This document shows positions 42,160 through 45,583 of a DNA stretch of 64,000 nt, piece by piece. The notes beneath the pieces are model-generated. The model worked only from the letters and a program-made list of their open reading frames with translations, made no database searches and had not been told where the DNA came from. This DNA is from an uncultured Planctomycetota bacterium. Lineage in GTDB: Bacteria > Planctomycetota > Planctomycetia > Isosphaerales > Isosphaeraceae. The stretch is taken from assembly GCA_963823665.1 (NCBI GenBank), contig CAWGMQ010000004.1, positions 2,336,001 through 2,400,000 of the forward strand, in the 5' to 3' direction. Positions within the stretch are counted from its first letter, which is position 1. Each line of letters starts with the position of its first letter. The translations under genes and the position numbers were made by a program.

Positions 42160-42750
42160 ATGCTCGAGGTTGTTACCGGCGTGCAAACGCCCGACGAAAC
42201 TCTGGTGCGGCTTGCTCGCGGCGGGGATAACCCAGCGTGTGAGGAGTTGTTCCGGCGCTACCGAAGCGATGCCTACCGCTACGCTTACCGGCAGCTCGGC
42301 CACGAGGAAGATGCACTGGATGTTGTTCAGGAATCAATGCTTAAGGCGTTTTCGGGCTTGGCTGATTTTGATGGTCGCAGTGCTTTCCGAACCTGGCTGC
42401 TACGAATCGTGATCAACACCGCTTTTGATTGGGGGAGAAGGCGCAAGCGACGGCCTAGCACGGGAGGTGGTCATGATGGTGACCTCATGCATCTGGAAGC
42501 GGCAACTGATGACGATCCATCTCGCCGTTTGCATCAGCAAGACCTACGCGTCGCTCTCGATCGTGCTCTCAGTCGCCTGAGCAACACAATCCGTTGTACG
42601 TTTGTCTTATTTGCTGAATTAGGCTTGAGTTACAGAGAGATTGCCGAAACACAAGAACTTCCGATCGGCACTGTCATGAGCCGCATTCATGCGGCTCGTG
42701 AAAAGCTCCAAGCCGAGCTCGATTGGAATGAGCTCTCCGGTCTTGGATGA
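42160..42750 (+). CDS. ECF RNA polymerase sigma factor
   Basis: A.DVVQE...KAF, F.GRSAFRTWL.RI..N, GLSYREIAE...PIGTVMSRIH.AR. Confidence 0.95.
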   Translation: MLEVVTGVQTPDETLVRLARGGDNPACEELFRRYRSDAYRYAYRQLGHEEDALDVVQESMLKAFSGLADFDGRSAFRTWLLRIVINTAFDWGRRRKRRPSTGGGHDGDLMHLEAATDDDPSRRLHQQDLRVALDRALSRLSNTIRCTFVLFAELGLSYREIAETQELPIGTVMSRIHAAREKLQAELDWNELSGLG

Positions 42751-42772
42751 AATTGAGGAAGGGTTTCTAAAG

Positions 42773-43495
42773 ATGCGTTGCGTGGATGTAATTCGAGAGC
42801 TGGCTACACCAACCGACAAGCGAGATGCCGTCGGTTTGGCTGACCACTTGCGCCGATGTTCATCCTGTGCGAACTGGGCCAGGCACGCGGAGCAGCTCGA
42901 TCGCCTCTGGGATCTAACCCGTCCGGCCGAGCCTTCGCCCGAGGTCTGGGATAGCCTGTGGTCGCAAGTTGCTCACTCGCTTGATAACCCAACAGCACAA
43001 GAAGTTGCATCGCCGTCACCGTCACGGTCGGTTTCCTGGGATCACTCGACCGATTCTTCGATGCTCGAGCTGGCGGGGAAACCTGTCCGGCATTCTGCCA
43101 CCTCGGCGTCGCGCTTCCGATTCTGGCAATCGATTGGCTGGGCTGGGCCTGCACGGGCTGCTGCCGTACTTTTGGTTGCTGGTTTGAGCTTGTGGCTCTT
43201 TGTGCCATCAAGGCAACAGGTTGCCACATTGAAGCCGGCCGCCTTGAGTCGAACTGTGCCGGAGGCCGTGGTCACTGTTTCCTTGCCCAGTGTTGATATC
43301 GAAGCAGGTCACATGGTTGTGATTCTTGCGGATCCGAACAGCCCATCGGTCGTTGATCGCACTCCAAAGGCGATCATTGCTGGCATTAGTCTCGAATACG
43401 TTGATTGGTATGGCGACGAGAGATCTTTTGACTGGTCTCAGGTATTCAACGAAGTTGAATACCTTGCCACGCCGAAGGTTGCCATGAAGGAGTGA
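42773..43495 (+). CDS. Zinc-binding anti-sigma factor (ZAS)
   Basis: MRC...HLRRCSSC (HxxxCxxC), central TM helix, directly after the ECF sigma gene. Confidence 0.85.
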   Translation: MRCVDVIRELATPTDKRDAVGLADHLRRCSSCANWARHAEQLDRLWDLTRPAEPSPEVWDSLWSQVAHSLDNPTAQEVASPSPSRSVSWDHSTDSSMLELAGKPVRHSATSASRFRFWQSIGWAGPARAAAVLLVAGLSLWLFVPSRQQVATLKPAALSRTVPEAVVTVSLPSVDIEAGHMVVILADPNSPSVVDRTPKAIIAGISLEYVDWYGDERSFDWSQVFNEVEYLATPKVAMKE

Positions 43496-43499
43496 TGCC

Positions 43500-44015
43500 G
43501 TGGCCGAATCAAGACAACACTCGCGCCGCTTTGGACTTGGGCTTCTGCTGGCTGTAGTCGCCACGGGCGGACTGGCCGTTTTGCTATCGAGTCTGCACGT
43601 GACGCGTGCTGGTTTTGATGATGACGATCGCGACGCCATCATTGCGCGACAGGTCACCGTGTTTGGAGTGCTCGCGACGCCCGGCGCCAAGACGATTGAT
43701 TCCAGGCTCTCGAACATTCAGCGTCAGTTGGGGAAGTTACTTCCGGACAACGGATTCAAGCTTCTCGACGCTCGTAGTGAGCGCATCGTCAATGGAGAAT
43801 CGATCACCTGCAGCCTCGGCAATGGCTACACACTGACGACATTATTGGTCACGCCTCTTGATGAGAACGGCAAAGTTGAGCTGCGCTGCGAGTTGTTTCA
43901 CGACGAAGTCCGTGAGTTCTCGACGCTGGTCAAGGCGCCCGTCAATCAACTCTTCTTCTGTCAGCGTCCGCTCAAGAACGGCTCGCAGTTCCTGATCGGT
44001 GTGGGAGCACGCTGA
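43500..44015 (+). CDS. Hypothetical exported protein, third gene of the ECF operon
   Basis: AAGGAG RBS; N-terminal hydrophobic helix; beta-rich domain. Confidence 0.7.
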   Translation: MAESRQHSRRFGLGLLLAVVATGGLAVLLSSLHVTRAGFDDDDRDAIIARQVTVFGVLATPGAKTIDSRLSNIQRQLGKLLPDNGFKLLDARSERIVNGESITCSLGNGYTLTTLLVTPLDENGKVELRCELFHDEVREFSTLVKAPVNQLFFCQRPLKNGSQFLIGVGAR

Positions 44016-44019
44016 GAGC

Positions 44020-44350
44020 CGGAAAGACAATCGACCGCCTGTCGGCGGTCGTCCGGCCTTTAAGGGCCGTTCGTCCCGTCGAGGGGCGGTCGCTGGCAGC
44101 GTTTCCAGCGACTGTCTTCAACCGGGCTGCCCGAAGATATCGGGCCGTCCTTGTGTTGGGACAGTTGCAAGAGAGGGTGCGCTGCGTCTTTCTGATCGTG
44201 AAGCCAAACAGGCCGTCCCTGGCCCTTGGCCCGCAAGCCGCCAGTCCGTCCCTGGACGCGACCGCCGTTTTCAGGCCATTACCGTGTCGTCCCTGACAGG
44301 TTCGGTTTTCCAACCGACATGGATTGTATCGGCCGTGCCGGGCATCCATC
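44020..44350 (-). ncRNA. Putative CsrB/RsmZ-like CsrA-binding small RNA
   Basis: Three hairpins with an identical CAGGGACG core and differing stems, four more GGA(C/T)G motifs, and a terminal 8-bp GC hairpin. Ends are approximate and the strand is inferred. Confidence 0.55.
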
Positions 44351-44403
44351 TGCAACGTTTTTGTCGCTCAAGCACTGGTCCACCCAATACAGGAATGCGC
44401 TCC

Positions 44404-44432
44404 TTGGAAAAACAAGCTCCCGGCGTTACAAT
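44404..44432 (+). promoter_or_regulatory. sigma70-type promoter for the aldolase gene
   Basis: TTGGAA-N17-TACAAT just upstream of the AAGGAG RBS. Confidence 0.55.
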
Positions 44433-44458
44433 TGTCACCCAAAAGGAGATCACTTTCG

Positions 44459-45583
44459 ATGCCTGACGTAGAGACCTCGAGCCATTGCAGTGCCATCACC
44501 CTCATGAGCAAAGGCCTGACGCCGGGCAAGCTCCGTGGTTTGCAACGAATCAGCAACCCCAACGGTACGCTCACGATGGTCGCCCTCGACCAGAACAGCT
44601 CAATGATCGAAATGGCAACCAAGGCTCTGAAAGCCAAAGGCCACGATCGCGAGCCGACGTACGGCGAAATCGTCGAGGCAAAGGTTGACCTCGCGAAGAA
44701 CCTGGCACCCTCAGCCTCGGGTGTGCTGATCGATGCCTACTACGGAGCTTGGTCCTGCATCGCGGCTGGTGCAGTTGGCCCTCAGACTGGGATGCTCGTC
44801 CGAGTAGAGATGTCCGGCAGCCCCAAGAATAAAGTGGGAGCTCCGCTCGGCCTGATTGAACCGGGCTGGAGTGTTGAGAAGATCAAGCTCATGGGGGCCG
44901 ACGCCGTCAAGCTTCTGGCTCAGTACGAGCCTACCGAGCCTCACTCCGCCGAGCACCAGTTTGAGTTGATCGAACACGTCTACGCCGAATGCAAAAAGCA
45001 CGATATCCTGATGCTGCTCGAGACCGTGGCGTTTCCGTTCGGAGGGGAAAAGAAAACAGATCCCAGTTTCATCAGCCGGAAAGCTGCGACCGTCATCGAC
45101 TCAGCCCGCCAGCTCAGCCGTTTCTGCGACATTTACAAGGCCGAGTTCCCAGGAACACTAGGTGCTGACTCGGACAAACAGCTCCGCGACAACCTCCAAG
45201 CATTGAATGCATGCAGTGAACGACCCTGGGTGCTGCTATCCGCGGGTGTCGACTATCCGGACTACTACAAACAGGTTCAGATGGCTCTGGAAGCCGGTGC
45301 CTCCGGTGTTCTCGGTGGGCGAGCTTTCTGGAAAGAGTATTTTCTGCAGGACGGCGCACAAGCACGTAGCCAATTTGCCGCGACGACCGCACTCAAACGA
45401 GTCGCCGACGTCAACACGCTCGTCCGCGAACGAGCCACTCCCTGGTCTGCCCGTTACGGCTTCACGAAGGAGTTGCTGAGCTCGATCAGGGCCACAGAAG
45501 GCTGGCACGCTCGCTACGGCTCGTCCTTGGGCTCATCCGATAGTGCCGCACGAGGAAAACGCGCTGCGGGCGACGTTTATTGA
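44459..45583 (+). CDS. lacD: Tagatose-1,6-bisphosphate aldolase-like (LacD family, class I)
   Basis: MVALDQ, S.VLID, WSVEKIK.MGADAVKLL, DIYKAEFP, PWVLLSAGV, GASGVLGGRAFW. The exact substrate is uncertain. Confidence 0.85.
   Translation: MPDVETSSHCSAITLMSKGLTPGKLRGLQRISNPNGTLTMVALDQNSSMIEMATKALKAKGHDREPTYGEIVEAKVDLAKNLAPSASGVLIDAYYGAWSCIAAGAVGPQTGMLVRVEMSGSPKNKVGAPLGLIEPGWSVEKIKLMGADAVKLLAQYEPTEPHSAEHQFELIEHVYAECKKHDILMLLETVAFPFGGEKKTDPSFISRKAATVIDSARQLSRFCDIYKAEFPGTLGADSDKQLRDNLQALNACSERPWVLLSAGVDYPDYYKQVQMALEAGASGVLGGRAFWKEYFLQDGAQARSQFAATTALKRVADVNTLVRERATPWSARYGFTKELLSSIRATEGWHARYGSSLGSSDSAARGKRAAGDVY

Follow-up and report, generated by a model that had tools for sequence, protein, structure and literature searches.

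Does a planctomycete lineage that encodes FliW also make a small RNA antagonist of CsrA? In the part of PMC7366521 consulted, small RNA sponges and FliW are treated as mutually exclusive restraints on CsrA, and the accessible text of PMC4682653 proposes FliW, rather than small RNAs, for Planctomycetes. Joint action of a small RNA and FliW in any species is left undetermined in the consulted sections of PMC7652899. An earlier note, made from the letters of a 64,000-nucleotide stretch of Isosphaeraceae DNA (the window), read the segment 44020–44350 as a candidate CsrB/RsmZ-like CsrA sponge encoded on the minus strand. The analysis described here favours, with a probability of about 0.68, a stand-alone, sigma-28-driven RNA that is predicted to titrate CsrA paralogs. 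Its host lineage has FliW, and reviews would predict no small RNA antagonist there; the question of small RNA plus FliW becomes testable, as the 115-nt transcript and the small proteins can be produced in E. coli. In the accessible portions of the literature searched the RNA is undescribed, although a description may exist in subscription papers or in supplementary motif lists. Rhodopirellula-1 is the sole Planctomycetes RNA listed in PMC2864571.

Architecture of the predicted RNA

The predicted small RNA gene occupies positions 44023..44320 of the minus strand (~298 nt), with a 5′ end placed from the −10 element and a 3′ end placed from a U-run. Its core of ~115 nt, similar in length to the Pseudomonas Rsm RNAs, comprises four hairpins, all on the minus strand. 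Hairpin H0 (44302..44317) has a GGAA loop and provides a fourth GGA site of weaker consensus; H1 (44281..44301) bears the hexaloop C-AGGGAC-G; H2 (44227..44278) is a long hairpin in which three helices stack beneath an apical AGGGAC hexaloop (44253–44248); and H3 (44210..44225) presents an AGGGAC hexaloop and is followed by a U-run. In this fold, which covariation supports, the 5′ ~115 nt display four GGA loops, three of which are full CANGGANG hexaloops, the form described as the high-affinity CsrA/RsmE target in the part of PMC4894983 consulted. Beyond H3 lie a variable linker (44093..44209, minus strand; 40–130 nt among relatives), which contains a non-conserved CAAGGACG at 44153–44146, and a terminator-like element (44023..44092, minus strand) formed by a long imperfect 3′ hairpin (44092–44032) and a U-rich tail.

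All motifs listed in the earlier note lie at the coordinates that it gave, and its three minus-strand hairpins turn out to be the conserved core. The GGAA-loop hairpin that it had added to them is conserved as H0, with GG retained in 55–56 of 56 copies. Its picture of seven motifs spread over 330 nt contracts, as the predicted functional core is the 5′ ~115 nt, in which there are four GGA loops. AAGGACG, CGGGACG and CCGGACG are present but unconserved among relatives, and ATGGATG (44343–49) falls in the spacer of the RNA promoter and is probably untranscribed. The terminal 8-bp hairpin (44032–51) is likewise present but probably an alternative fold; across relatives, its 3′ arm pairs long-range with 44085–92.

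Four copies of CANGGANG lie inside 150 nt (44146–44295), and the window as a whole holds 41 copies against 42.9 expected, i.e. is without enrichment. In dinucleotide shuffles of 44016–44360 (345 nt; n = 20,000), four copies of CANGGANG arose in 2, and three ANGGAN hexaloops with at least 4 closing pairs arose in 0 of 20,000, figures that are optimistic in that the region was chosen post hoc and by eye. Plain GGA (10 copies) is not enriched in the same region relative to shuffles. The minus-strand 351 nt fold with z = −4.0; as a strand test, folding energy gave similar values for the two strands (z −2.45 vs −2.48).

Covariation and loop conservation

RNAalifold, applied to a sequence-only alignment, returned 14 pairs, 9 of them with compensatory changes. 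Without guidance it found H1, two pairs of H0 and, in H2, the inner and middle helices, and it missed H3. On the same alignment, the four-hairpin structure was 87.7% paired with double changes in 17 of 30 pairs, a level of covariation that was matched by 0 of 500 shuffles and was far lower in slid controls, with the reservation that kin are not independent in these controls. A model-fitted alignment of 55 distinct sequences, which is biased toward the model, gave 93.3% pairing and double changes in 22 of 30 pairs. Compensatory changes affect 4 of the 6 pairs of H0 and 11 of the 14 pairs of H2, and 4 of the 5 pairs of H1 covary. Across paired columns, 130 G-U/U-G cells outnumber 26 A-C/C-A cells, which assigns the RNA to the minus strand.

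In the H1 loop of 56 copies, C and A (56 each) are followed by a free position, two G residues (56 each), A (55), a second free position and G (56). All four letters occur at both free positions, and the loops of H2 and H3 are similar, with A/GGA of H2 retained in 55 of 56. At least three CANGGA motifs are present in 52 of 56 copies, although such loop invariance is inflated because the training sequences were partly chosen for CANGGA clusters. In a control set less tied to that choice, 10 of 13 BLASTN-chosen relatives have at least two motifs; two of the three misses are contig-end coordinate offsets at loci that do show the loops, and the third is a match to a different part of the gap.

These patterns bear on whether the GGA loops might be sites for some protein apart from CsrA, or represent DNA repeats for a transcription factor. 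In this genome the CAGGGACG repeats do not differ from one another, as either possibility would allow, but the compensatory and G-U pairs favour RNA over DNA sites, the spacing of the repeats varies, and fixed and free positions are arranged exactly as in a CsrA site. Such a ligand or DNA function is accordingly regarded as improbable, and binding of the RNA to CsrA is considered very likely.

A role as 5′ leader or as small coding gene would be in keeping with a 127-codon minus-strand ORF that spans the region here, and with the same-strand gene that follows the terminator in some genomes. Among RNA copies, however, no ORF is conserved: starts, frames and lengths all vary, and an ORF of at least 15 codons is missing altogether from 6 of 29 full-length copies. 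The next gene here is convergent, and downstream genes vary among genomes, which leaves a leader or coding function exceedingly improbable. Sequence comparison instead delineates a conserved, structured, non-coding minus-strand element that carries CsrA-consensus loops, is preceded by a sigma-28-type promoter and has terminator-like ends. This element is almost certainly a real RNA gene.

Distribution within and beyond Isosphaeraceae

Searched by BLASTN in 60 relatives, the gap matched 13 of the 36 family members and none of the 24 others. For the first of two models, 47 loci were gathered: 46 from the surroundings of the adjacent 171-aa gene, and one through the BLASTN matches; model R1 was made from the 24 with a clear three-motif cluster, and the other 23 were excluded (no cluster, degenerate or truncated). 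At E ≤0.01, R1 matched 83 of 121 family genomes. Model R2, which represents the promoter and first two hairpins in 54 sequences, identified exactly one locus per genome in the same 83 genomes at E ≤8.7e-6, with background beginning at 7.5e-5; the 107 obtained with R2 at E ≤0.05 include chance matches. What stays constant among copies is the promoter together with the four GGA hairpins.

The element is single-copy in this genome, as no paralog was found by BLASTN or R1, and a further, unrelated GGA-rich RNA may exist elsewhere in it. A triple-CANGGANG pattern gave 12 matches, which correspond to the RNA locus and to repeats, several of them coding-like. Further CANGGANG clusters occur in this genome at L068 and L069 (G000:C10), one of which is a short repeat array. 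In another genome (G107), a second, partial match to the 5′ domain lacks a promoter (L151).

Neither R1 nor R2 found the RNA in 38 of the 121 family genomes. Genera without it are g16 (8 genomes), g20 (5), g22 (3), g27 (2), g7 (2) and g79 (1), alongside some incomplete genomes; near-complete genomes of all six genera carry CsrA, FliA and FliW. A relaxed R2 search of 5 genomes from no-match genera revealed no convincing copy among the best 20 loci. Some absences may reflect divergence, because a degenerate syntenic copy with a promoter in G005 escapes both models, scoring above background with neither R1 nor R2.

Outside the family, R1 matched 1 of 114 genomes, weakly (E 0.007) and in a csrA leader without the promoter, and R2 matched 4 of 150 genomes of the phylum at background scores, with the hairpin array absent. 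By these searches, there is no convincing occurrence of the RNA outside Isosphaeraceae. A collection-wide pattern scan returned mostly chance matches, 8 of 80 loci being strong with R1 (>90 bits). These eight are labelled Isosphaeraceae (3), Planctomycetaceae (3) and Planctomycetota (2), and the family label Isosphaeraceae is used here because of these names. The csrA-leader match (L149:1501–1616), the sole one to R1 from outside the family, is possibly an autoregulatory site.

Genomic neighbourhood

The usual neighbour of the RNA is a convergent 171-aa gene (43500..44015, plus strand), the last in an ECF sigma / anti-sigma-like operon. This gene is present in 45 of 48 family genomes versus 1 of 32 other genomes, and is convergent within the RNA locus at 39 of 56 loci. 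Its operon (42160–44015) encodes an ECF sigma factor, an anti-sigma-like protein and the 171-aa protein, which has no Pfam match. On the other side, outside the RNA, lies a divergent gene for a DeoC/LacD-family aldolase (44404..45583, plus strand), which is divergent and adjacent at 26 of 56 loci. The earlier note had given the aldolase its own promoter, and 44404–44432 does match the sigma-70-type consensus.

Synteny of this strength could point to an element that acts in cis, either on the convergent ECF-sigma operon, through antisense or terminator control, or on the divergent aldolase, and short RNA forms end 50–140 nt from the stop codon of the convergent gene. The RNA nevertheless lies 16–40 kb or another contig away from the 171-aa gene in G068, G072, G067 and G018, possesses its own promoter, and overlaps neither neighbour gene here. 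Strong as it is, this synteny with the ECF operon is not obligatory, and control in cis is a poor prospect as the main function.

Promoter and transcription

No clear minus-strand promoter had been seen in the earlier note. A search for a sigma-70-type promoter on the minus strand at the RNA locus found none, but a promoter of the sigma-28 (FliA) type, missed by that first reading, spans 44362–44326 and consists of an A-tract, TGCAG, 16 nt and GCCGATAC. The A-tract and the −35 element TGCAG (44354–44350) together occupy 44350..44362 (minus strand), and their column profile is kept across 55 loci. The −10 element GCCGATAC lies at 44326..44333 (minus strand), with CGAT found 11–12 nt ahead of the model start at 55 of 56 loci. 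The RNA locus thus shows the hallmarks of a sigma-28 (FliA/WhiG) promoter, a GCCGATA −10 and a TAAAG-like −35 separated by a fixed distance.

E. coli FliA promoters have the same form with a 14-nt spacer, and TGCAG is the −35 element at fliA (PMC4183435, as far as Table 2 goes). The spacer is 15–16 nt at RNA loci, as in planctomycete flagellin and flgM promoters, compared with 14 in E. coli; in genus g31, the promoter reads TAAAG or TCAAG-N15-GCCGATAA. Among 30 planctomycete flagellin genes, 18 have a matching pattern ahead of them, compared with a mean of 1.0 and at most 4 after shuffling and with 3 on the opposite strand; the same pattern, which was tuned after viewing sequences, is found at 35 of 56 RNA loci. 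The same motif type precedes flgM of this genome, in which a single FliA/WhiG protein, the cognate sigma factor, scores above cut-off. Genome-wide, the pattern is not enriched (12 vs 10 control sites), and its use in mapping the sigma-28 regulon was rejected as background level, the 11 other sites being uninformative. Transcription of the RNA is judged highly likely to be sigma-28-dependent.

One soil metatranscriptome (run X1) contained part of a 2-kb query. Among 14 contigs, several sequence variants cover 44182–44270, and one is 84 nt long and identical; some contigs extend beyond H3, which fits a longer transcript. The data are contigs without strand, ends or level, in which DNA is possibly present, and metatranscriptome support for the RNA is weak. 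The 171-aa gene has no RNA cover in run X1, which was not counted as evidence.

3′ end and length forms

A strict script identified the 3′ hairpin (44092–44032) with its U-rich tail at 29 of 56 loci, and a loose one did so at 35 of 56; RNA lengths from the strict script range from 211 to 314 nt, mostly 283–302. The basal stem of this hairpin covaries. Alternative lineage forms, read by eye, have a U-run directly after H3 (~115 nt) or a different hairpin (~185 nt), and in short-form lineages H3 is probably the terminator. An apical CTCGTTCGGCGAG in the 3′ hairpin occurs at 9 of 56 loci in distant genera (L047, L051, L058, L084, L089, L128, L131, L143 and L042), and is absent from closer relatives; as a genome-wide marker, this apical motif was rejected at background level.

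Sponging gives no explanation for the conserved 3′ hairpin. The RNA might instead bind CsrA mainly for purposes other than as a decoy, with CsrA stabilising or chaperoning it and its 3′ part or its linker targeting mRNAs or a different protein. Retention of the 3′ hairpin in many genera and the apical motif of distant loci speak for such a dual-function or guide RNA, and CsrA-assisted pairing of a small RNA is known for B. subtilis SR1 (PMC7652899, in the sections consulted). Several lineages, however, lose or replace the 3′ part yet keep the GGA domain, the linker is unconserved, and in the 56 copies the strongly conserved unpaired letters are confined to the GGA loops. A dual-function or guide role is therefore judged unlikely, and action of the RNA as a decoy is considered likely.

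CsrA paralogs and an orphan flagellar circuit

The earlier note had called for confirmation of csrA paralogs in the genome, and 10 copies score over the Pfam cut-off (L001–L010). CsrA is found in all 121 family genomes with 3–18 matches each, FliW in 59 of 60 family genomes that are at least 90% complete, and FliA in 112 of 121 family genomes, including 47 of 47 high-quality ones. Co-occurrence of the RNA with CsrA, FliA and FliW is not discriminating, as nearly all family genomes have these proteins. The equivalent of R44, which the consulted text of PMC7366521 describes as essential for RNA binding, is kept by 10 of 10 CsrA paralogs here. Asn occupies the position of B. subtilis N55 in 2 of 10 paralogs, the fliW-adjacent copy and one with an insertion; changing N55 in B. 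subtilis blocks FliW binding (PMC6529632, in the part seen). According to the available part of PMC13443453, CsrA prevalence is high in Planctomycetota, and repression of the hag leader, a GGA leader, was absent with about half of the CsrA homologs tested.

The prediction of an undescribed Csr-type RNA is supported by family-wide conservation, covarying stems, CsrA-consensus loops, the minus-strand signal, the RNA's own promoter and terminator, the 10 csrA paralogs and the lack of a conserved ORF.

This genome encodes fliA (L094), flgM (L398) and fliW–csrA (L092); a FlhG/FleN-like gene is also present. Flagellin was not found in this genome (92% complete) nor in 26 other family genomes, and is present in 58 of 84 genomes from other families. 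The consulted part of PMC5352709 describes Isosphaeraceae as having few flagellar genes and no motile swarmers. The family retains an orphan flagellar control circuit of FliA and FliW, plus FlgM in this genome, and it seems that the flagellum was lost and the control proteins kept.

Relation to known systems and proposed mechanism

Rfam gave no match for this region of the window (CsrB, CsrC, RsmX, RsmY, RsmZ and RsmW absent at E ≤10), and the same six families were absent at E ≤1 from 7 homologous loci. The label CsrB/RsmZ-like can consequently apply to a predicted functional class, and the RNA is not a homologue of CsrB/RsmZ. In common with RsmX/RsmY/RsmZ and CsrB/CsrC, as described in the sections of PMC7652899 and PMC7366521 consulted, the RNA has short ANGGA-loop hairpins and is, at the sequence level, stand-alone and non-coding with its own promoter and terminator. 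It differs from these gammaproteobacterial RNAs in phylum, in the coexistence of FliW, in its long 3′ hairpin and in its sigma-28-type promoter, which takes the place of BarA-UvrY/GacS-GacA activation; its four sites are few compared with the 22 GGA of CsrB. The best reading is that the RNA is predicted to work like RsmY/RsmZ/CsrB but is unrelated to them in sequence.

The nearest circuit is that of the Campylobacter jejuni flaA mRNA leader, which, in the part of PMC4894983 consulted, is sigma-28-transcribed, carries ANGGA hexaloops and titrates CsrA alongside FliW. The flaA transcript is a flagellin mRNA with two loops, whereas the RNA here is non-coding with four loops, in a family where no flagellin was found. 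There is also a likeness to the B. subtilis Hag-FliW-CsrA switch (PMC7652899 and PMC6529632, in the parts seen), as fliW adjoins the csrA copy with the N55 equivalent and fliA and flgM are present; unlike in B. subtilis, the third partner, flagellin, was not found, and most other csrA paralogs lack an N55 equivalent.

In the proposed mechanism, transcription by a polymerase that carries the sole FliA-type sigma factor would begin near 44320, and the 5′ ~115 nt fold, as covariation shows, into four hairpins that present GGA loops. By analogy with known CsrA/RsmE recognition, these loops would occupy both RNA surfaces of CsrA dimers, at approximately two dimers per RNA, and the RNA would draw at least one of the ~10 CsrA paralogs off its mRNAs. 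The transcript would stop at the long 3′ hairpin here; in other lineages it would end with H3 or a different hairpin. CsrA activity would thereby be coupled to the FlgM-FliA switch, retained in a family in which no flagellin was found. The RNA is hence a candidate regulator for a CsrA paralog set among the largest known, and it offers a candidate function for the sigma-28/FlgM pair kept in a family without motile swarmer cells (PMC5352709, in the consulted part).

A bolder and tentative proposal, for which the odds are rather against, is that FlgM, FliA, FliW and CsrA were kept after flagellum loss as a repurposed switch, with the RNA as a main output: a non-coding stand-in for CsrA titration by flagellin mRNA that controls the ~10 paralogs. 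If true, this would be a first case of a dedicated small RNA antagonist and FliW acting in one cell, and would mean that Csr-type sponges arose independently.

An origin of the RNA from a flagellin leader was considered and rejected: there was one weak match among 30 planctomycete flagellin loci (E 0.063), and the leaders lack the architecture of the RNA. Like sigma-28-type promoters stand before protein genes in other planctomycete classes (L394, L395 and L397), and the L394 leader, which lies behind such a promoter, contains two GGA motifs.
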